Assembly (NCBI GenBank): GCA_964594965.1
Contig: CAZQMX010000002.1
Span: 44,306 to 108,305, forward strand
From: an uncultured Candidatus Saccharibacteria bacterium
GTDB lineage: Bacteria > Patescibacteriota > Minisyncoccia > Portnoybacterales > UBA2143
Direction of reading: 5' to 3'
Length of the DNA: 64,000 bases
The translations under genes were made by a program, and so were the position numbers. Below, piece after piece: positions 7,649 to 36,672 of this stretch; position 1 is the first letter of the stretch; the number at the start of each line of letters is the position of its first letter. Below the pieces are notes generated by a model. That model had not been told where the DNA came from. It did not search any database and saw only the letters and a list, made by a program, of their open reading frames with translations.

Positions 7649-7656
7649 TGCTTTTT

Positions 7657-7722
7657 TGTCATTCTGAGCGAAGCGAAGAATCTGTTTAACAGATCCTTCG
7701 GGCTTTGCCCTCAGGATGACAA
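7657..7722. repeat. intergenic palindromic element (TTGTCATTCTGAGCGAAGCGAAGAATCTG...CCTCAGGATGACAA) between lepB and the LCP gene
   Basis: Terminal inverted repeats gtcattctgag / ctcaggatgac with a nested inner inverted repeat; related copy at 28473..28533. Confidence 0.6.
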
Positions 7723-19198: not shown

Positions 19199-20080
19199 TT
19201 AAATATTAAATAATTCCCGGGAGTTTTTGGTTGTTTGTTTAGCAACTTCCTCAAATTTAATTCCTTTAATCTCGGCTATTTTTTCTGCAACATATTTAAC
19301 ATAAGCTGGTTCATTTCTTTTGTTTCGATTTGGTTCCGGAGCTAAATATGGACAATCGGTTTCAATTAATATCTTATCCAAAGGAATCTCCCTTATTACT
19401 TTATCATAATCTCGGGCATAAGTAATCAATCCATTGAAACTAATATGTAATCCCATTTCAATAATTTTCTTTGCCTGGGAAAGACGACCCATAAAACAAT
19501 GGACAACTCCTTTTAATCCGGGTGCGCAGACCATTGGACAAGAAGCACAGCCAAGATTAAACATAGTTAAAATTTCAATTAAATCATCGTAAGCCTTGCG
19601 GCAATGGAAAACAATTGGTTTTCCCATTTGTTGGGCCATTTCCAATTGTCTGACTAAAGCTTCTTTTTGTTTTTCCCTTCGACTCCGCTCAGGATCCCGA
19701 CCTTGCGTCGGGACTTTCTTATCGATATCTCCATAATCCAGACCAATCTCTCCAACTCCAACCACTTTTGGGTCTTCAAGTAATTTAAGATATTTTTTCT
19801 CATCTAATTCCTCGTATTCCCTTTCTTCTATTTCTCCTTTCCAATTTTTTTCCCTTCCGCCTTCAAGAACATGAATTGGATGAAGTCCAACAATGGCATA
19901 AACCCCTTCCTTGTATTTGTTGGCGTATTCAACCGCTCTTTTGCTCGTTGAATACTGAGCGCCAACATTAATCATCCAGACACCATTATCAAGAGCCCGG
20001 CGAACAACTTTATCCCCGTCTTCCTTAAAATCTTTGAAATTAACATGGGCGTGAGTGTCAATTAATATTGGCTTAGGCAT
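19199..20080 (-). CDS. tatD: TatD family metal-dependent DNase, with in-frame repeat insertion
   Basis: IDTHAHVNF start and GEIGLDY box. Internal GC-rich element encodes KKVPTQGRDPERSRRE. Confidence 0.8.
   Translation of the reverse strand: MPKPILIDTHAHVNFKDFKEDGDKVVRRALDNGVWMINVGAQYSTSKRAVEYANKYKEGVYAIVGLHPIHVLEGGREKNWKGEIEEREYEELDEKKYLKLLEDPKVVGVGEIGLDYGDIDKKVPTQGRDPERSRREKQKEALVRQLEMAQQMGKPIVFHCRKAYDDLIEILTMFNLGCASCPMVCAPGLKGVVHCFMGRLSQAKKIIEMGLHISFNGLITYARDYDKVIREIPLDKILIETDCPYLAPEPNRNKRNEPAYVKYVAEKIAEIKGIKFEEVAKQTTKNSRELFNI
19676..19714. repeat. GC-rich element family 1, in frame inside tatD
   Basis: cttcgactccgctcaggatcccgaccttgcgtcgggac; encodes KKVPTQGRDPERSRRE. Confidence 0.65.
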
Positions 20081-28468: not shown

Positions 28469-28472
28469 TCAT

Positions 28473-28533
28473 TGTCATTCTGAACGCAGTGAAGAATCTG
28501 TTCGTATAGATCCTTCGACTTCGCTCAGGATAA
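28473..28533. repeat. intergenic element related to 7657..7722 (GTCATTCTGAACGCAGTGAAGAATCTG...CGACTTCGCTCAGGAT) between recO and ileS
   Basis: Shares both the gtcattctga..gaagaatctgtt and the cttcgacttcgctcaggat modules (the latter also present in the in-frame family-1 copies). Confidence 0.6.
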
Positions 28534-28568: not shown

Positions 28569-31517
28569 TTACTTCTTAATTCCGAGCCAGAGATTATGGC
28601 CGTTTAATTTGATCTCCTTTTCAACCAAAAAGACTTCCCCGATGTTTTTAGAGTCGGGATCCCGACCTTGTGTCGGGACTTTCTTTTTTGGCCCGCCCGC
28701 ATTGCCTTGCGAAGCATGGCGGGCGGGTCCGGCTTCAATTTTTCTGGCTGAAACTTCTTTTTTAATTTCTTCGAGGTTGTTTTTAATTAAATCGCTTAGT
28801 TTTGATTCACCGGCTGAATAGCGGAAATATGCTGGTTGGCCTGGTTTTAATCCGGCGTCTTTTCTCATTCCCTGGATAAAACGGATTAAATCCCGAATCA
28901 TTCCTTCTGATTCTAATTCTGAAGTAATTTTTGTATCTAATTTAATACTTTTGCCAAAATCAACTTCTTTAACATTAACTTCTTCTTTGATTAATTGGGT
29001 TAATTCTTTATCCTGGACAATCTGTTTTTTGGTAATTATTAATTTCTTCAGAGGTTGTCTGACTTTAATTCCTTTTTCTGCTCTTTTAGCCAGAGCCAAA
29101 GCAACAATTTCTCTGACATCATTCATTTTCTTTTCCAGCTTTTCATCAATTAAAGATTTGTCCGGCTTGGGATAACCGCAGAGATGAACGCTTTCTTTGT
29201 CTTTTCCGGTCCGAAGCTGAAGATAAATTTCTTCGGAAATGAAAGGGGTGAAAGGAGCGATTAATTTGGATAAATTAAGTAAGGTTGAATAGAAAATCTG
29301 TGAGGCTTCTTCTTTTTGTTTTCTATTCTCCGGTTTCTGAAACCTCGATCTTGACCGTCTGATATACCAGTTAGACAAATCTTCAACAAATTCCTCAATT
29401 AAACGAGCAGCCGAGACAACATCATATTTCTCTAAATTATCAATGACCAAAGTGTTTAATTGATTAAATTGAGAAACAATCCATTTATCCAGAATGAATC
29501 TTGGCTTTGTTTTCTTTGGTTTAAAGTTTTTGTCTTTGTAAGTATTGAAAAAGACAGCCGAGTTATGAAGCGTTCCAAAAACTCTTCTGTTTTTGTCGGC
29601 AACATCCTTAACATCAAATCTCTTTGGCTCTCCAGCGGAATTGATGGTGTATAAGTACCAACGGAGAGTGTCGGCTCCGAATTGTTCGCACATTTTCCAG
29701 GGATCAACAATATTGCCCTTTGACTTTGACATTTTCTTGCCTTTCTTATCCAAGACATGGCCAAGAGAAATGACATTTTTAAAACAAGCCCCATTCTTAA
29801 TTTCTCCGGCTTCCTCCATTAAAGTCGCGATGGCAAGGAGAGAATAGAACCAGCCTCTGGTCTGATCAACGGCCTCGCAGATATAGTCGGCGGGGTAGTG
29901 GTCTTTTAATTCCTTCTGGCTGTTTTTCTGATGAGGATAGCCCCATTGAGCAAATGGCATTGCTCCTGAATCAAACCAGACATCAATAACTGACTTTTCC
30001 CGAATCATTTGGCCGCCGCACTGGCATTTGAATTTAACCTGGTCGATATGTGGCCGGTGAAGATCTTTAATTTCTTTTCCCAGTTCCTTTATACTGCCAA
30101 TTGCCTTTTCCTTATCGCATTTCTGGCATTTCCAGATTGGCAAAGGGGTCCCCCAGTATCTTTCCCTTGAAAGAGCCCAATCCTTGGCTTCTTTAATAAA
30201 TTCGCCAAACCGGCCATATTTGGTGTGATTCGGCTCCCAATTAATCTTTTCGTTGTTATCTGTCAGCTTTTTTCGAAGAGATGACATTTTAATAAACCAG
30301 GAATCTTCGGCGTAATAGAGAAGAGGGGTGTCGCATCGCCAACAAAAAGGATAATCATGCTCGTATTCTTCTTCCTTGAATAAGAGGTTTTTCTCTTTTA
30401 AGTAATTAATAATTTTCTTTTCGGTTTCTTTATCTTTAACATATTGATTAGCTAAACCATATGGAGCCAAATCATTGGTAAAATATCCTTTTTGATCAAC
30501 AGTATGGATTTCAGGCAAGCCGATTTCTTTACCCAGATTATAGTCATCTTCGCCATACATGACAGCAGTATGAACAATGCCGGTTCCTTCTTCGGTTGTA
30601 ACAAAATCAGCTAAAACAAGGTAATGGGATTTCTTTTTACTTTTTTTAACTGATTCAATTTCAAAGAGAGGCTGGTATTCAAGACCAACCATATCCTTTC
30701 CTTTGAGCTCTTTTTCTACTTTATAGTCGCCTTCAATAATTTCTAATCTCTCCTTGGCTAAGATATATTTCTTGCCCTGGTATCCTATCTTAACGTAATC
30801 AATATTCTTTCCAATGGCTAAAGCGACATTTCCCGGCAGGGTCCAGGGAGTAGTTGTCCAGGCTAAAATATTGTCCCCCTTTTTTACTTTTTCATTTCCT
30901 TTGGTAATTTTAAAATTAAGATAAACTGAATTCTCTTTTACTTTCTCGTATCCCTGAGAAACCTCGTGGGTGGATAGAGCTGTTCCGCAGCGGGTACAAC
31001 GGGGAACAACCTTAAATCCTTTGTAAAGCAGTCCTTTTTCCCAAACTTTTTTTAAAATATGCCAAACGCTTTCAATATATGAATTTTCGTAAGTAATATA
31101 TGGATTATCCATATCTATCCAATAACCAATCCTATCTGTCATTTTTTCCCATTCGTCCTTGTATTTCCAAACACTTTTTTTACATTCCTGATTGAATTTA
31201 TCAATTCCATATTTCTCAATATCGTCTTTTCCTTTGAAATTTAATCTTTTTTCAACTTCAATTTCAACTGGCAGGCCATGCGTGTCCCAACCGGCCTTTC
31301 GATGACAAAAAAATCCGCGCATGGTTTTGTACCGCGGAATGATATCTTTAAAAGCTCTGGCTTCAACATGGTGCATGCCTGGTCGACCATTGGCTGTTGG
31401 CGGACCTTCAAAAAAAACAAAACTTTTTTTGCCTTTGTTTTTTTTCAAACTTTTTTCGAAAATTCCAGACTTTTTCCAGAATTTTAGAATTTTTAATTCA
31501 TTCTTTGAAAAGTTCAT
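28569..31517 (-). CDS. ileS: isoleucyl-tRNA synthetase (type 2-like), with C-terminal repeat insertions
   Basis: KMSKSKGN; WALSRERYWGTPLPIW; CWRCDTP zinc motif; 982 aa. C-terminal region contains two adjacent GC-rich elements (AGPARHASQGNAGGPKKKVPTQGRDPDSK). Confidence 0.9.
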   Translation of the reverse strand: MNFSKNELKILKFWKKSGIFEKSLKKNKGKKSFVFFEGPPTANGRPGMHHVEARAFKDIIPRYKTMRGFFCHRKAGWDTHGLPVEIEVEKRLNFKGKDDIEKYGIDKFNQECKKSVWKYKDEWEKMTDRIGYWIDMDNPYITYENSYIESVWHILKKVWEKGLLYKGFKVVPRCTRCGTALSTHEVSQGYEKVKENSVYLNFKITKGNEKVKKGDNILAWTTTPWTLPGNVALAIGKNIDYVKIGYQGKKYILAKERLEIIEGDYKVEKELKGKDMVGLEYQPLFEIESVKKSKKKSHYLVLADFVTTEEGTGIVHTAVMYGEDDYNLGKEIGLPEIHTVDQKGYFTNDLAPYGLANQYVKDKETEKKIINYLKEKNLLFKEEEYEHDYPFCWRCDTPLLYYAEDSWFIKMSSLRKKLTDNNEKINWEPNHTKYGRFGEFIKEAKDWALSRERYWGTPLPIWKCQKCDKEKAIGSIKELGKEIKDLHRPHIDQVKFKCQCGGQMIREKSVIDVWFDSGAMPFAQWGYPHQKNSQKELKDHYPADYICEAVDQTRGWFYSLLAIATLMEEAGEIKNGACFKNVISLGHVLDKKGKKMSKSKGNIVDPWKMCEQFGADTLRWYLYTINSAGEPKRFDVKDVADKNRRVFGTLHNSAVFFNTYKDKNFKPKKTKPRFILDKWIVSQFNQLNTLVIDNLEKYDVVSAARLIEEFVEDLSNWYIRRSRSRFQKPENRKQKEEASQIFYSTLLNLSKLIAPFTPFISEEIYLQLRTGKDKESVHLCGYPKPDKSLIDEKLEKKMNDVREIVALALAKRAEKGIKVRQPLKKLIITKKQIVQDKELTQLIKEEVNVKEVDFGKSIKLDTKITSELESEGMIRDLIRFIQGMRKDAGLKPGQPAYFRYSAGESKLSDLIKNNLEEIKKEVSARKIEAGPARHASQGNAGGPKKKVPTQGRDPDSKNIGEVFLVEKEIKLNGHNLWLGIKK
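28650..28680. repeat. GC-rich element family 1, in frame inside ileS 3' end (adjacent to a family-2 copy)
   Basis: gagtcgggatcccgaccttgtgtcgggac; encodes KVPTQGRDPDS. Confidence 0.6.
28689..28730. repeat. GC-rich palindromic element family 2, in frame near the 3' end of ileS
   Basis: cccgcccgcattgccttgcgaagcatggcgggcggg; encodes AGPARHASQGNAGGP. Confidence 0.65.
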
Positions 31518-31737: not shown

Positions 31738-33294
31738 TTACATCCTCTCTGGAGCGTTAATTCCCATTAAACTTAAACTGTTTTTTAAGACAATCTGAAC
31801 GGCCTTGACTAAAGCCAGGCGGGATTGGCTTTTTTCCTTATCTTTATCAATGACCCGACATTTTTCATAAAACTTATGAAAAGAATTGGCTAATTCAAGG
31901 GAGTAATAGGGGAGTCGCTGAGCTTGATAATCCCCTGCAATATCTTGAACAATTTCAGGGAATTTGATTAGCTGACGAATTAAATCCAATTCTTCTGGTT
32001 TTTTTAAACTAGCTTCTTTATCCGGTTTTAATCCTTCCTTTTCCGCTTTCCTTAAAATACTGGATATTCTGGCATGAGCGTACTGGACATAGAAGACCGG
32101 ATTTTTGTTTGACTGTTCCTTGGCTAAATTAATATCAAAATTCAAATGAGTGTCGTTTGATTTTTGAAGGAAAAAAAATCTGACTGCATCGGGACCAACC
32201 TGGTCTAAAATCTCATCCATTGTCACATAAACCCCGGCTCTTTTAGACATTCTTTTCTTTTCGCCTTTTTCAAGAATTGTGACGAACTGAAGAAGAATAA
32301 TTTCTAATTTGTCCTTATAACCCAAAGCTTCAACCCCGGCCATTAATCCTAAAACATCGCCATGATGGTCTGCTCCCCAAATATTAATAACTTTGTCAAA
32401 TTTCTTATCTTCAAATTTGTATTGATGAAGGGCGATATCCCCCGCCAGGTAGGTCTTTTCGCCGTCGCTTTTGACGACTACCCTATCCCTTTCATCCCCG
32501 AATTTTGAGGATTGAAACCATTGGGCTTTGTCTTTGTCGTCAATTAAACCTTTTTTCTCTAATTTTTTCAAGACCTGATCAACTTTTCCTGAACTATACA
32601 AATCTGATTCAAAAATCCATTCATCATATTTTATTCCAAGTTTGTCTGTTGTTTTTTGGATGTGGTCTTTAATAATATACTTGGCAGCCATTTGTCCGGC
32701 TTTGTATGGGTCTTTCTCTTTTATCTTTTCCGCTAATTGGTCGATATATTCTCCCTTGTATTTAGCTTCTTTATCTTTTAGAACCGAATGGCCTAGGGTT
32801 AGAATCTGCATTCCAGCATCATTGACATAAAAAGCTTTTTCAACTTGATAACCGGCTTTATTTAAAACATTAGCCAAGACATCGCCATAAGGCCCACCCC
32901 GGGCATTACCAACTGTTAAGGGTCCGGTTGGATTGGCAGAAATAAATTCAACCTGAATTTTCTTTTTCTTTCCAATATCTAATTCGCCGTAGTCATTTTC
33001 TTTTTTAAGAATTTCGTTTAATTCATCTAAGAGTGCTTGTCTAGACAAAAAAAAGTTAATAAAAGCAGGCCTGCCCGCATCGCTACGCGAAGCGTTGCGG
33101 GCGGGGCCCGCCATCTCAACTTTGGCAAACAAAGGATTGTCTTTTAGTTTGGAAATAATCTCGTCTGGATTGATTTTCTCCTTTAAGGCGATATTGGTTG
33201 AGAAATCGCCAAATTGAGCATTGGTTGGGTGCTCTAATTCGGCCTCTTTTTTAACAACTTCTTTAATTAATTTCTCAATTTCCTCTCTTAGCAT
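31738..33294 (-). CDS. argS: arginyl-tRNA synthetase, with N-terminal-region GC-rich insertion
   Basis: VEFISANPTGPLTVGNARGG (HIGH-region equivalent) and DALR-type C-terminus. Insertion MAGPARNASRSDAGRPAF. Confidence 0.9.
   Translation of the reverse strand: MLREEIEKLIKEVVKKEAELEHPTNAQFGDFSTNIALKEKINPDEIISKLKDNPLFAKVEMAGPARNASRSDAGRPAFINFFLSRQALLDELNEILKKENDYGELDIGKKKKIQVEFISANPTGPLTVGNARGGPYGDVLANVLNKAGYQVEKAFYVNDAGMQILTLGHSVLKDKEAKYKGEYIDQLAEKIKEKDPYKAGQMAAKYIIKDHIQKTTDKLGIKYDEWIFESDLYSSGKVDQVLKKLEKKGLIDDKDKAQWFQSSKFGDERDRVVVKSDGEKTYLAGDIALHQYKFEDKKFDKVINIWGADHHGDVLGLMAGVEALGYKDKLEIILLQFVTILEKGEKKRMSKRAGVYVTMDEILDQVGPDAVRFFFLQKSNDTHLNFDINLAKEQSNKNPVFYVQYAHARISSILRKAEKEGLKPDKEASLKKPEELDLIRQLIKFPEIVQDIAGDYQAQRLPYYSLELANSFHKFYEKCRVIDKDKEKSQSRLALVKAVQIVLKNSLSLMGINAPERM
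33068..33112. repeat. GC-rich palindromic element family 2, in frame inside argS
   Basis: cctgcccgcatcgctacgcgaagcgttgcgggcgggg; encodes MAGPARNASRSDAGRPAF. Confidence 0.65.
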
Positions 33295-33375
33295 ACCCTG
33301 TAGTGAAATTTCGATTTTAACAATCGAAATCCGTTAATAATTGTCATTTATTCTGATACTGCGACTTTTATCTGT

Positions 33376-33434
33376 ATGCCCCGTTTTTATTAATCCGCCT
33401 TCAGCGGATTTATCGAAATTCTACTACGGGGCAT
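33376..33434 (-). promoter_or_regulatory. structured leader element copy A (argS upstream; minus-strand sense)
   Basis: Outer 10-bp stem tatgccccgt/acggggcata enclosing ctactac...cgaaatt and inner hairpin aatccgc-cttca-gcggatt; same architecture as copies B and C with compensatory changes. Confidence 0.55.
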
Positions 33435-33563
33435 AATATTTTAATCATACTTGATTTTCCCCTACTCGACAAGCATTAGACTATTGACAGAATACACTCT
33501 AAATGTTATAATTATGCCAAGTTTGTTCTCGAAAATTAACCCAAAACCCTAAAGGAGGATCAA

Positions 33564-34199
33564 ATGAGAAAAAGTTTATTTTTGGCAATTACGGCCGTTT
33601 TGGTGGTTTTTTTGTTTCAGGCTCTTGCTGCGGGCGCGACGGAAAAGCGAGCCCTATCGATCAAAGCGGAGGCACGAGTACAGGAAGTGATGAAAGAGAC
33701 CGGCTTTAGTCGGGAAAAAATTCTTAATCTGGTTAACCTCTTCGCCGCAGCAGAAAAAGTTCAAAAATCAGCAAGCAACGAGTCGGACCCGAAAAAGAAA
33801 GAAATTCTGATCCTGGAAGCGGAATATTATGAATCCTTGGCAAAATCATATATGTTCATGGATATCCTTGAGAAAAAAACAAAGGAGCTTATCAAAGAAC
33901 TAGAAAAAGCCAAGGTAACCGACACAGACAATAGAATTTCGAAAAAACTGGCAACTAAGATAAACCTGCTCGGAGCAATGGGAACAAAAGCAGTTTTAGT
34001 TACTACAGATACCGCTGCCAGGTTACTTGAGTTAAAAATCAAAATTTGGCTCGCAAGCGACAGCAGAATGGTGGAAAAAGCCAAAGAGCTCGAGGAAGCA
34101 TATTCCGGTATAGAAACAGCCCTCGACCTTTTTTACAAAGCAATCAAGCCATTCGGTGACCTCGTCCTGTTTGAGGTAATGGAAAATTTCGAGTACTAA
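33564..34199 (+). CDS. secreted alpha-helical hypothetical protein (signal peptide)
   Basis: MRKSLFLAITAVLVVFLFQALAAGA signal-like N-terminus and good SD (aaaggagg); coiled-coil-like K/E-rich body. Noticeably higher GC than its neighbours. Confidence 0.5.
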   Translation: MRKSLFLAITAVLVVFLFQALAAGATEKRALSIKAEARVQEVMKETGFSREKILNLVNLFAAAEKVQKSASNESDPKKKEILILEAEYYESLAKSYMFMDILEKKTKELIKELEKAKVTDTDNRISKKLATKINLLGAMGTKAVLVTTDTAARLLELKIKIWLASDSRMVEKAKELEEAYSGIETALDLFYKAIKPFGDLVLFEVMENFEY

Positions 34200-34225
34200 A
34201 ACCCAAACTAGCCGCTTCCGGCTAC

Positions 34226-34270
34226 AGCCGCATCCAATCAACAGCAGGATGCGGCTGTTTCATTTTCATA
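34226..34270 (+). terminator. rho-independent terminator after the 33564..34199 gene
   Basis: cagccgcatcc-(11 nt)-ggatgcggctg stem followed by tttcattttcat. Confidence 0.65.
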
Positions 34271-34292
34271 ATCCATATAATACAATAAAAGT

Positions 34293-34353
34293 ATGCCCGG
34301 TAGTAGAACTTTGATAGGTCCCGCAGTGCTGCGGGACAAGAATACTGGGCATA
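34293..34353 (+). promoter_or_regulatory. structured leader element copy B (smpB upstream)
   Basis: atgcccggta-gtagaactttgata-[ggtcccgcag-tgc-tgcgggac]-aagaa-tactgggcat; distal complementary segment atcaaagtttcactaccggg at 34414..34433 abuts the smpB ATG. Confidence 0.55.
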
Positions 34354-34433
34354 GAAATAAGTATTAATTTATAGGTAATAATGTAGGAGTTTTGATTAAA
34401 TTACTAAATTAGAATCAAAGTTTCACTACCGGG

Positions 34434-34883
34434 ATGGCAACCTTAGTCAGAAATCCAAGAGCCAGGTTTGATTACCATATCCTTGAAAAATTCGAGGCTG
34501 GTTTAGTTTTGGCCGGTTTTGAAGTTAAGGGAATTAAAAACGGAAGAATGACTTTAAGGGGCTCCTATGTCACAATTAAAAATGAAGAAGTTTTTTTAAT
34601 TAACGCCCAGATTATGCCCTATCAGCCCAAAAACACACCGCAAGATTACGAACCAAGCCGAACCCGAAAACTCCTTTTAAACAAATCTGAGATTAAAAGA
34701 TTGATTGGGAAGACTAAAGAGAAAGGCTTGACTTTGGTCCCTATTCGGGTCTATACTAAACACCGAAAGCTTAAATTGGAATTTGGTCTGGGTCTGGGAA
34801 AGAGAAAAACTGACAAAAGAGAAGTTATTAAAAAAAGAGAAACCCAGCGCAGAATCCGAAGGGCCCTACGAGAGAAAGTATAA
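34434..34883 (+). CDS. smpB: SsrA-binding protein SmpB
   Basis: RNPRARFDYHILEKFEAGLVLAGFEVKGIKNGRMTLRGSYV is the canonical SmpB N-terminus. Confidence 0.9.
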   Translation: MATLVRNPRARFDYHILEKFEAGLVLAGFEVKGIKNGRMTLRGSYVTIKNEEVFLINAQIMPYQPKNTPQDYEPSRTRKLLLNKSEIKRLIGKTKEKGLTLVPIRVYTKHRKLKLEFGLGLGKRKTDKREVIKKRETQRRIRRALREKV

Positions 34884-34948
34884 AAATATTTTTCCAGTTT
34901 AGAAATTAAAAATTAAAAATTAAAAATTCTTTCGCGAAGCGAAAGCTT

Positions 34949-35290
34949 GGGGGTGCCTGGCATCGATGGAAAGGGATTTCAAAATAGGCAGGTTCCCGCA
35001 GGAGTGCGGGATAAAATTCTACTCATCATATAGTTGCAAACAAACAACTTTCACCTGCTTACGCTTAAATCGTAAGTCATCTGCCTTATTGACTCTTGAT
35101 AGATAGGGTAGGTGTCAATTATCAAGATAGACAGGATTGGTGACCGGACAATTCTGTTGAAACTAATCGGTCTAGAGATAATGGAATTTTGTTTCTTTCA
35201 ATCCATTGTTTCGAAAACTTTAAAGGAAATAAGCCTGTAGAATATTTTGGATGAGCTTTTCAGACAAGGGTTCGACTCCCTTCACCTCCA
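34949..35290 (+). ncRNA. ssrA: tmRNA (ssrA), ~340 nt, CCA not encoded
   Basis: Immediately downstream of smpB. 5' GGGGGUG pairs with 3' CACCUCC-A acceptor. T-arm-like ggttcgactccc near the 3' end. Candidate tag reading frame gca aac aaa caa ctt tca cct gct tac gct taa (ANKQLSPAYA*). Confidence 0.75.
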
Positions 35291-35440
35291 CTCGACTCGT
35301 TCCTCGTCTTCGACTACGCTCAGACTCGTCACTCGCTCGTGGCAAGCCACCATAATGTTTGTTATTAAGAAATATTCTCTTATTTAAGAGTCGAGTGTCC
35401 CGAGCGAAGCGAATCCCGAGCTAGTCGAGGGACAAATCAA
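35291..35440. repeat. composite GC-rich repeat region immediately 3' of tmRNA
   Basis: ctcgactcgttcctcgtcttcgactacgctcagactcg ... gtcccgagcgaagcgaatcccgagctagtcgaggg; shares cgcttcgctcggga-type modules with family 1. Confidence 0.45.
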
Positions 35441-35499
35441 TAACTAATAGCAAAAATATATACAAGAAATTCAAGCAACCACAAATTAAAAGAGCAAGG

Positions 35500-35988
35500 T
35501 TGAATATGCAAATCAGAGTCAGCCCAATTCGGCTGATTGATGAGAACGGCGAGAATTTAGGAGTTGTTGAAACGAGCGAAGCTCTCAAAATGGCCCGAGA
35601 AAAAGGGCTTGATTTAATTGAGATAGCGCCAAATATCAGTCCCCCGGTCTGTAAAATCATGGACCACGGCAAGTATCAATACCAGAAATCCAAAGATGAA
35701 AAAAAACAGAAATCCAAACAAAAGAGAGTAGAGATTAAAGGAGTCAGAATTGGAATCCGGACTGGGAAGCATGATTTAGAAACCAAAGCCAAACAGGTAG
35801 AAAAGTTTCTTAATCAGGGCAACAAAGTTAAAATTGATATGATGCTCAGGGGCCGGGAAAAAGGACTTTTTCAATTATCTAAAGAAAGATTAAATGATTT
35901 TATTAAAATGATTCCATTTGAAATTAAGATTGAACAGGAAATCAAAAGACAGCCAAGAGGGCTATCAATGGTAATCGGGAAAGAATAA
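35500..35988 (+). CDS. infC: translation initiation factor IF-3
   Basis: IRVSPIRLIDENGENLGVVETSEALKMAREKGLDLIEIAPN matches the IF3 N-domain; followed directly by rpmI. Confidence 0.85.
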   Translation: MNMQIRVSPIRLIDENGENLGVVETSEALKMAREKGLDLIEIAPNISPPVCKIMDHGKYQYQKSKDEKKQKSKQKRVEIKGVRIGIRTGKHDLETKAKQVEKFLNQGNKVKIDMMLRGREKGLFQLSKERLNDFIKMIPFEIKIEQEIKRQPRGLSMVIGKE

Positions 35989-35989
35989 T

Positions 35990-36190
35990 ATGGGTAAAAT
36001 GAAAACAAAGAAAGCGCTGGCTAAAAGATTGAAAATTACCGGCGGAAAAAAAATATTAAAGAGAAGAACTCATCAAGATCATCTCAATGCCAAAGATTCT
36101 GGCAATCGAACCAGAAGAAAAAGAGAGGTTAATAAATTGTCTTCGTCTAATAGGAAGGTAGTAAAAAGATTACTACCTAATTTAAAATGA
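35990..36190 (+). CDS. rpmI: 50S ribosomal protein L35
   Basis: MGKMKTKKALAKRLKITGGKKILKRR is the L35 signature. Confidence 0.85.
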   Translation: MGKMKTKKALAKRLKITGGKKILKRRTHQDHLNAKDSGNRTRRKREVNKLSSSNRKVVKRLLPNLK

Positions 36191-36247
36191 CCCGGTAGTA
36201 GAACTTTGATACAATTCGCCAAAGGCGAATTAAGAATACCGGGCATA
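36187..36247 (+). promoter_or_regulatory. structured leader element copy C (between rpmI and rplT)
   Basis: atgacccggta-gtagaactttgata-[caattcgcc-aaa-ggcgaattaa]-gaa-taccgggcat, starting on the rpmI TGA stop; distal segment atcaaagtttcactaccggg at 36308..36327 abuts the rplT ATG. Confidence 0.55.
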
Positions 36248-36327
36248 AAATAGAGTAATAACATTTAATACAGGGCTTTGATTTTTTGATAAATTAAGTT
36301 AGTCAAAATCAAAGTTTCACTACCGGG

Positions 36328-36672
36328 ATGACCAGAGTTAAAAGAGGCGTTACTGCCAGCAAAAGAAGAAAAAAAGTTATTAAAATGGCCAAGGGCTATA
36401 AGTGGGGAAGAAAGTCGAAATACAAGGCGGCTAAAGATGCTGTTCGCCACGCCCTGGGTTATGCTTATCGAGACCGCCGAAGAAAAAAGCGGGATTTTAG
36501 GCAATTATGGAATATTAAGATTAATGCCGCTTCAAGAGAAAAAGGAATTACTTATTCTCAATTTATTAATAAATTAAAAAAAGCTAAGATTGAATTAGAC
36601 AGAAAAATCTTAGCTCATTTGGCAGAACACAAACCGGAAGTCTTCTCAAGGATTGTTGAGAAAATCAAATAA
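36328..36672 (+). CDS. rplT: 50S ribosomal protein L20
   Basis: [55 protein letters not shown] is the L20 signature. Confidence 0.9.

Follow-up and report, generated by a model that had tools for sequence, protein, structure and literature searches.

In a 64-kb stretch of DNA from a bacterium whose RplT is most similar to proteins of Candidatus Portnoybacteria (this whole stretch is called the window below), the start codons of argS, smpB and rplT are each preceded by a sequence of ~137 nt with one shared architecture, which raises the question of what these three sequences are. An earlier note on this DNA described them as structured leaders and proposed either a cis-regulatory RNA shared by translation genes or a transposable element of the miniature inverted-repeat type (MITE) with promoter or leader function. 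Each part of the architecture described there was indeed found where it had been placed. Nevertheless, the three "leaders" are very probably copies of a small, non-coding mobile element, a MITE that has spread through the Candidate Phyla Radiation (CPR), and this is the best explanation of the evidence as a whole.

Three copies, and no others, were found in the window with nhmmer and a profile built from the whole family. Each is composed of a 20-nt 5' arm, a GC-rich inner hairpin, a short middle segment complementary to the tip of the arm plus the flanking ATG, an AT-rich stretch and an inverted 3' arm. The arms measure 20-23 nt, are 83-90% complementary and are spaced 96-98 nt apart. The 5' arm reads CC(C/G)GGTAGTAGAA(C/T)TT(T/C)GAT. 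With up to three mismatches allowed, the arm CCCGGTAGTAGAACTTTGAT gave five matches, where 0.01 would be expected, and the sixth arm is located at 33296-33315.

Copy A (136 nt, 33296-33431, minus strand; profile match 33431-33296) faces argS (31738-33294). Its gene-distal arm, CCCCGTAGTAGAATTTCGAT, is located at 33412-33431 and its gene-proximal arm, ATCGAAATTTCACTACAGGG on the gene strand, at 33296-33315, with the inner hairpin (AATCCGC/GCGGATT) at 33392-33410 and the middle segment (ACGGGGCAT on the gene strand), which is complementary to the orphan ATG upstream of the copy and the arm tip, at 33376-33384. Copy B (138 nt, 34296-34433, plus strand) precedes smpB (34434-34883); it has the arm CCCGGTAGTAGAACTTTGAT at 34296-34315, the hairpin GGTCCCGCAG/CTGCGGGAC at 34318-34338, the middle segment TACTGGGCAT at 34344-34353 and the gene-proximal arm ATCAAAGTTTCACTACCGGG at 34414-34433. 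Copy C (137 nt, 36191-36327, plus strand) is situated between rpmI (35990-36190) and rplT (36328-36672), with the same two arms, CCCGGTAGTAGAACTTTGAT and ATCAAAGTTTCACTACCGGG, at 36191-36210 and 36308-36327, the hairpin AATTCGCC/GGCGAATT at 36213-36231 and the middle segment TACCGGGCAT at 36237-36246. Two details of the earlier description need adjustment: the gene-proximal segment ends exactly at the ATG in copies B and C, but one T intervenes in copy A, and the outer stem of 10 bp reported for all copies is reduced in copy C to 7 bp plus an ATG/CAT pairing that is offset by a bulged A.

The first evidence for insertion comes from the flanks. Copy A is bordered by TATG on both sides: the gene-side repeat (33292-33295, minus strand; CATA on the plus strand) holds the argS start codon at 33292-33294, and the distal, orphan repeat is found at 33432-33435 on the same strand. 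On the plus strand, copy C is enclosed by ATGA at 36187-36190, of which TGA is the rpmI stop codon, and ATGA at 36328-36331, of which ATG is the rplT start codon; thus, as was noted earlier, this copy starts at the rpmI stop, splits rpmI from rplT and ends at the rplT ATG. Copy B has TATG, with an orphan start codon, to its left (34292-34295, plus strand) and ATGG, the start of smpB, to its right (34434-34437, plus strand). Only the ATG is repeated here, i.e., (T)ATG...ATG(G), and the duplication was either of 3 bp or of 4 bp with 1 nt lost afterwards.

The second line of evidence is provided by a syntenic relative, locus L116 (the loci compared here carry L numbers), in which RplT and ArgS are 91 and 87% identical to those of the window and in which all three copies are absent. 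Its empty argS site reads ..gatTATGttaagagag, with a single TATG, and its rpmI and rplT genes overlap as ATGA in the sequence ..tttaaaATGAccagag. Both sites correspond exactly to the window sequence minus the element and one 4-mer. The smpB gene of this relative also lacks the element and starts ..aaaaccATGGcaac, but the upstream DNA differs, so a strict comparison is not possible at this site. The element is also missing from the more distant relatives L117-L122. The flanks and the empty sites in L116 show that the copies arose by insertion through a mechanism that duplicates 4 bp.

The same signature is found far beyond the window. Genomes, one per species, were searched with a pattern for both arms, which requires intact arms on both sides, and the counts concern the matches listed; full-size statistics are based on the 119 listed copies with enough flanking sequence. 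Identical 4-nt flanks were present in 78 of these 119, where the chance is 1/256 per copy, and most others differ by one base or by an offset of 1 nt. Besides full-size copies of 125-150 nt, mini copies of 56-85 nt exist: a metagenome scan for arms 15-45 nt apart yielded 102 of them, half of which (51/102) have identical 4-nt flanks. The terminal inverted repeats of ~20 nt follow the pattern CCNGGTAGT(AG/GA)AANTTNGAT, and 1738 of 1764 arm cells are Watson-Crick paired when the two asymmetric positions are excluded. Copies occur nested (L038) and in tandem (L036). Within single genomes, near-identical copies are found (three in L108, and L014/L025/L037), some with interiors at least 90% identical, which, judged by their sequences, appear to be the product of recent activity. 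The element is without coding capacity: the reading frame of the orphan ATG relative to the gene is random (29/22/28), and the median length of the upstream ORF (open reading frame; uORF) that it opens is 22 codons, with the stop codon 72 nt (median) ahead of the gene ATG. The random frame excludes a leader peptide or an in-frame N-terminal extension that starts at the orphan ATG, and together with the distance of the stop codon it also rules out stop-start coupling by the uORF. Thus, the family has all the structural hallmarks of a MITE, and the parent element alone is missing.

Copies tend to cluster. All three in the window lie within 3 kb, and similar clusters, with two to three copies that precede neighboring genes, are found in L108 (2876-6090), L011 (3312-5560) and L069 (2313-4087), which suggests local hopping. 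The possibility that copies A and B together form a composite transposon around a 211-residue ORF was considered and rejected, because the two outer flanks differ and a separate duplication surrounds each copy. In L004 and L029, the interior of the copy repeats tRNA-like flanking sequence, and some copies are tied to tRNA genes.

The family was found in at least 113 loci from ~60 assemblies among the matches listed. The hosts include Saccharibacteria and Parcubacteria/Paceibacteria as well as Doudna-, Buchanan-, Moran-, Uhr-, Berkel-, Gottesman-, Colwell-, Lipton-, Harrison- and Portnoybacteria. The window belongs to a CPR contig of groundwater type. Six contigs were labeled as belonging to other phyla, and the nearest homologs of their genes in the set are CPR loci. 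The family is therefore apparently restricted to the CPR (Patescibacteria), in which it is widespread. No description of it was found in the literature searched; it appears to be a previously unreported repeat family, common to CPR lineages as distant as Saccharibacteria, Parcubacteria, Microgenomates and Berkelbacteria.

Could these sequences nevertheless be dedicated regulatory leaders, such as a riboswitch, a protein-binding leader or a thermosensor, in which a switch frees or occludes the start codon of translation-related genes? Some observations speak for this. The two mutually exclusive foldings that had been proposed were computed for all three window copies: in the closed fold, the 5' arm pairs with the 3' arm (-42 to -50 kcal/mol; z = -5.3 to -6.5 relative to shuffled sequences), and in the open fold (-26 to -35 kcal/mol), the 5' tip and the flanking ATG, hence the orphan AUG, pair with the middle segment, leaving the 3' arm and the start codon free. 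The copies are located directly before start codons with a fixed polarity. Furthermore, the inner hairpin differs between copies A, B and C and yet keeps pairing, as had been observed before, and this holds across the family. In 32 members, the inner stem is 81.6% paired vs. 33-51% in slid controls, with 47 double-change cells, a number reached in none of 500 shuffles. These signals were obtained by pair counting on the named structure, and RNAalifold on the hairpin alignment reported no structure. The hairpin is clear in about one third of the copies (37/98 with a minimum free energy (MFE) of -8 kcal/mol or lower).

Against a regulatory leader stand, first of all, the target-site duplications and the empty sites. 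Second, the genes behind the copies have no common function. The earlier note had asked which genes the family precedes, and the answer, obtained with the both-arm pattern, is a functionally unrelated set: 151 Pfam families in 100 proteins among the matches listed, including rpoB, ftsZ, aminoacyl-tRNA synthetase genes, tsaD, parA and genes for sigma factors and ribonucleotide reductase. In the three cases where ftsZ is preceded by a copy, the FtsZ proteins are only ~50% identical and the interiors of the elements are unrelated. Third, the interior is not kept; in most copies, it is <75% identical to that of any other sampled copy, and the minis lack the middle part altogether. The middle segment exceeds shuffled controls in only ~32% of the copies, with weak covariation with the tip. 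Fourth, the rare mismatches in the arms comprise nine G.U and seven A.C pairs, hence there is no bias toward pairing in RNA. Fifth, searches against Rfam 15 returned only transfer-messenger RNA (tmRNA) and tRNA at the gathering score, and no further family at E ≤ 10 was accepted; the best other match was STnc380, with 29 bits vs. a cut-off of 60. Finally, the free toehold in the 5' arm should allow the 3' arm to displace the middle segment, and the open fold would then be unstable. Because of the target-site duplications, the empty sites and the unrelated downstream genes, a leader of translation genes is rejected; as the primary identity of the element, a regulatory RNA is largely refuted, and we consider it very improbable indeed. 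The middle segment amounts to a degenerate third tip of an arm, and the "covarying" long-range pairing is simply that of two terminal inverted repeats. The bipartite appearance, the covariation and the two folds are by-products of three arm-derived segments, not a purpose-built switch. A false lead is thereby removed: there is no new riboregulator of translation genes here. Of the alternative that the note itself had offered, the MITE stands, and the promoter or leader function attached to it remains conjectural, as discussed below.

If the sequences are mobile elements, the next question is why they sit on start codons. In 92 of the 119 full-size copies (85 by a stricter test, i.e., 71-77%), the start codon of a long ORF lies inside the duplication; ORF starts were assigned mechanically throughout. 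Eight further full-size copies lie in Shine-Dalgarno (SD) sequences (GAGG or GGAG), mainly in Saccharibacteria and Berkelbacteria. Where the duplication is exactly TATG/CATA, it falls on a start codon in 54 of 55 cases. TATG start codons make up at most 27-45% of the non-coding TATG/CATA sites in the same loci, a generous estimate, and with 50% the probability of the observed number would be ~1e-15. Beyond TATG, no extended target motif is kept, except for a mild preference for C at +4. The copies are also oriented: in 73 vs. 17 copies, the AT-rich side is turned toward the gene and the hairpin-bearing, GC-rich side away from it, and -10-like hexamers at 10-30 nt from the gene-proximal end were counted 39 times vs. 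six times in the opposite reading.

The duplications of the minis are varied and include TTGA/TCAA, TTTG/CAAA, TATG/CATA, TGGA/TCCA, AGGA and GGAG/CTCC, among others. Start codons account for 13 of the 79 unique sites and SDs for 11, and a further six match the opening four bases of a TTGACA box that is accompanied by a proper -10 box; random positions fall on these signals in 4.6, 1.6 and 0.2% of cases, respectively. In each case where a mini lies at such a signal, the duplication restores it to the downstream gene. One mini was found in the loop of a terminator, and another one, in L152 (3900-3969), is located at the 3' end of a tRNA gene with the duplication TGGA. Placement on start codons is thus far more common for full-size copies (71%) than for minis (16%).

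This placement could be due to targeting, or else to strong selection where intergenic DNA is very compact. Slow survivorship was rejected as the sole cause, since all of the youngest copies, albeit few (8/8), already occupy start codons. Leaderless start sites as the sole target were rejected as well: a -10 box at 6-7 nt is present on 24% of the orphan sides vs. 8% in the background, but 19 copies are located in tight junctions between tandem genes. Together, the youngest copies and the pattern of the minis lean toward some targeting. If selection is responsible, the family neatly illustrates at which places of a streamlined genome insertions can survive.

How are genes expressed with such an insertion on their start codon? 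The absence of an SD from argS, smpB and rplT, which the note had pointed out, is real but not special, as only 12 of the 54 window genes have an SD-like motif; a -10 box at 5-8 nt before the ATG, i.e., with leaderless geometry, is present in 17 of 54. Similarly, in the CPR loci L003-L115, 88 of 706 genes have an SD-like motif, a TATAAT-like box precedes the ATG by 5-8 nt in many, and T is found at -1 in ~44%. These sequence features suggest that leaderless or SD-independent initiation is widespread in these genomes. Native signals are kept upstream of the insertions. For argS, a promoter (TTGTCG-17-TATGAT) is predicted at 33444-33472 on the minus strand, upstream of the orphan ATG, and the homologous TATGAT in L116 is located 6 nt before the ATG. 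For smpB, a -10 box, TACAAT, can be read at 34281-34286 on the plus strand, 6 nt before the orphan A at 34293, which is the geometry of a leaderless promoter and is also seen at smpB in relatives.

In the lineage of the window, insertion took place at T|ATG of argS, at the smpB ATG and in the ATGA overlap of rpmI and rplT. The start codon is among the duplicated bases, so that every gene retains an intact ATG right after the element, with a single T in between in the case of copy A. Transcripts from the native promoters of argS and smpB, or of the infC-rpmI operon, presumably read through the element. With these promoters upstream, and with copy C apparently part of the infC-rpmI-rplT operon, it is probable that the mRNAs include the elements. 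The 3' arm would then serve as a new leader without SD, which may be tolerable where ~78% of the genes lack an SD and many are leaderless. Translation from the AUG behind the 3' arm would require the 20-bp arm helix to be opened, bypassed or cut; the hairpin may be unwound or processed. For the window copies, read-through combined with an opened or processed hairpin is a realistic option, although we would stop short of calling it probable. In many other family members, an outward promoter may be provided by the gene-facing half, which is AT-rich and -10-like. Such a promoter would explain both the polarity and the dominance of full-size copies, rather than minis, at start codons, and it is conceivable, if on balance doubtful, that a substantial share of the family truly donates promoters. 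A -10 box within the arm that recreates a leaderless start was considered and rejected, as the essential A is missing from the hexamers at -13 to -7 (TTCACT, TCTACT).

A related alternative is that the copies are co-opted MITEs, in which the arm hairpin loops out the insertion, or is cut by RNase III, so that upstream signals (the 5' end, the promoter or the rpmI stop codon) are brought next to the AUG, with silent or mildly regulatory consequences. There are precedents: the hairpins of Correia elements in mRNAs of Neisseria are processed by RNase III, and a hairpin in gene 38 of phage T4 bridges SD and AUG. The terminal stem is present in the MFE fold of 90 of 98 copies, with z-scores of -5 to -6, native promoters are kept upstream, and rplT must be translated past an insertion of 136 nt in a former ATGA overlap. 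However, the stem ends 0-1 nt from the AUG and, if intact, should hinder binding of the 30S subunit; the arms lack a wobble bias specific for RNA; and it is left unexplained why the copies are placed on start codons rather than elsewhere in leaders. Hence, co-option of this kind seems rather unlikely. Whichever the route, an element that interrupts the start regions of essential genes (rpoB, ftsZ, argS, rplT) in some of the smallest known genomes has a bearing on how CPR bacteria start transcription and translation.

Several results weigh against the mobile-element explanation or parts of it. No autonomous element was seen: arm pairs >200 nt apart were absent from ~900 kb of flanks of the genome loci, the fetched metagenome loci contained none (arm pairs >160-200 nt apart), and viral contigs gave chance matches only. 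A preference for the sequence TATG alone does not explain the 54 of 55 duplications on start codons, and minis without an AT-rich interior also occur at start codons. No full sigma-70 promoter (-35/-10) was predicted inside the window copies, the uORF that starts at the orphan ATG has no design in its frame or stop codon, and the translation of rplT at 136 nt past the rpmI stop is not explained. Finally, a DDE transposase predicts neither of two peculiarities of the arms. There is free variation at positions 3, 4, 14 and 17, yet it is mirrored in the partner arm in at least 97% of the copies; at position 14, all four bases occur, mirrored in 97 of 98 copies. Positions 10-11, in contrast, are fixed: in 101 of 102 minis, one arm has AG and its partner GA, even though the search pattern admitted 16 combinations.

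These peculiarities raise the possibility that the element moved as a folded single strand recognized by its structure, in the manner of REPINs (doublets of repetitive extragenic palindromic (REP) sequences) with their REP-associated tyrosine transposase (RAYT), of integron attC sites or by a new enzyme, and not by a classical DDE transposase acting on double-stranded ends. The arms indeed keep pairing through compensated changes, as at position 14, the fixed tandem A.C/G.T mismatch would mark the strand, a GTAG motif is located beside the tip, the covarying subterminal hairpin often has loops of the GCGAAGC type, and no autonomous insertion sequence (IS) was seen in the scanned loci. On the other hand, duplication of 4 bp of many different sequences is the rule, as proven by the empty sites, and transposition by HUH enzymes, RAYTs and IS200/IS605 elements and recombination at attC are not known to duplicate targets of arbitrary sequence. 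Moreover, the tip shared by the three copies in L108 is imperfect, so copying does not depend on perfect pairing. Movement as a single strand is therefore improbable. If recognition of the folded strand is real, it would constitute a new transposition or targeting mode.

Combining these considerations, one may tentatively propose that the element is directed to, or survives only at, the 5' edge of expression signals (the first 4 nt of the -35 box, the SD, and the start codon or leaderless start), where the 4-bp duplication rebuilds the signal; that it is recognized as a folded single strand, for which the arms must pair and the tandem mismatch is fixed; and that full-size copies act as portable 5' modules on essential genes. 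That all three parts hold jointly is speculative, and we would not expect it. We know of no bacterial precedent for a transposon aimed at gene-start features, and none was found in the literature searched. If targeting applies, the element would be the first case in bacteria of a transposon aimed at expression signals, and a natural tool for swapping promoters and leaders.

Among known systems, the Correia elements of Neisseria (NEMIS/CREE) are similar in being non-coding, 100-155 bp long and bounded by terminal inverted repeats of ~26 bp and a short target duplication. Many copies are located near gene starts, and they are transcribed into mRNA with an arm hairpin and can donate promoters, two properties that the CPR element may share. 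In contrast, their arm sequence is unrelated, they duplicate TA instead of 4 bp of varied sequence, they are confined to one genus and not spread over the CPR, and the start codon within the duplication in 71-77% of full-size copies sets the CPR element apart. MITEs derived from IS elements, such as RUP, MITEAba12 and Nezha, share the small size, the inverted ends, the target duplication, dispersed and nested copies and presence/absence between relatives, but the CPR element has ends that are almost invariant across class-level lineages around unrelated interiors, and the fixed AG/GA asymmetry of its arms. REPINs, mobilized by RAYT, are likewise hairpin-forming inverted doublets of ~100 nt with GTAG near their ends, compensated changes in the arms and long residence in lineages. 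However, they lack a target duplication, which is evident here from flanks and empty sites, and they avoid gene starts. The Rickettsia palindromic elements (RPEs) are also small palindromic mobile repeats that are tolerated in contact with coding sequence in reduced genomes, but they are inserted in frame and translated, whereas here the frame of the orphan ATG is random and a stop codon follows after a median of 22 codons. IS1380 and piggyBac resemble the element in a duplication of 4 bp (4-5 bp in IS1380/piggyBac) and in ends starting with CC, which is a resemblance only: the arm sequence differs from that of ISEcp1, and piggyBac requires TTAA. Outside bacteria, Ty3 (at Pol III start sites) and P elements (at promoters) also insert within a few bases of an expression landmark in eukaryotes, but there a protein provides the tether, whereas selection may explain part of the pattern in the CPR.

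Other features of the neighborhood were recorded. Between the inverted copies A and B (region 33436-34291) lies the ORF of 211 residues (33564-34199) mentioned above. It has a TTGACA-17-TATAAT promoter (33484-33512), a strong SD and a terminator (34240-34268), has no Pfam match on record, and is not present in the syntenic relatives, where the gap between argS and smpB is only 43-61 nt. Directly after smpB follows the tmRNA gene (34949-35293; tag ANKQLSPAYA) and, downstream of it, a GC-richer segment (35289-35440) with a 10-bp inverted repeat, CACTCGACTC/GAGTCGAGTG, separated by ~90 nt.

Other small repeats are present as well. Compared with the ArgS of L116 (87% identical), the window ArgS has an in-frame insertion of 12 residues, ARNASRSDAGRP (residues 65-76), at 33066-33110 (minus strand). 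The DNA that encodes this insertion is GC-rich and palindromic and contains CGCGAAGCG, in a genome of 38% GC; from its sequence, it looks like a small hairpin repeat inserted in frame, similar to an RPE. The sequence CGCGAAGCG occurs at 33086 and also at 34933, where 0.09 occurrences would be expected. Another GC-rich palindromic repeat, TCGGGATCCCGACCTTGCGTCGGGAC, is found at 1922-1953, 19689-19720 and 28654-28685, always inside long ORFs, including that for IleRS (28569-31517), and two of its copies extend to 61 nt. Two copies of TTGTCATTCTGAGCGAAGCGAAGAATCTGTT, a small palindrome with a center of the GCGAAGC type, are 90% identical and located a few bases upstream of two start codons on the minus strand (7656-7686 and 28472-28502).

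Finally, the elements affect annotation, as they shift or hide start codons, and in related contigs gene callers truncated smpB and shortened rpmI. In L116, smpB was called (2037-2417) 23 codons short of the ATG at 1968; in L001 (4566-4757), rpmI was called at an internal ATG, giving 63 instead of 66 residues; and in L120 (3278-3501), rpmI was not called. Thus, the annotation of short genes is fragile in these genomes, with or without the element.

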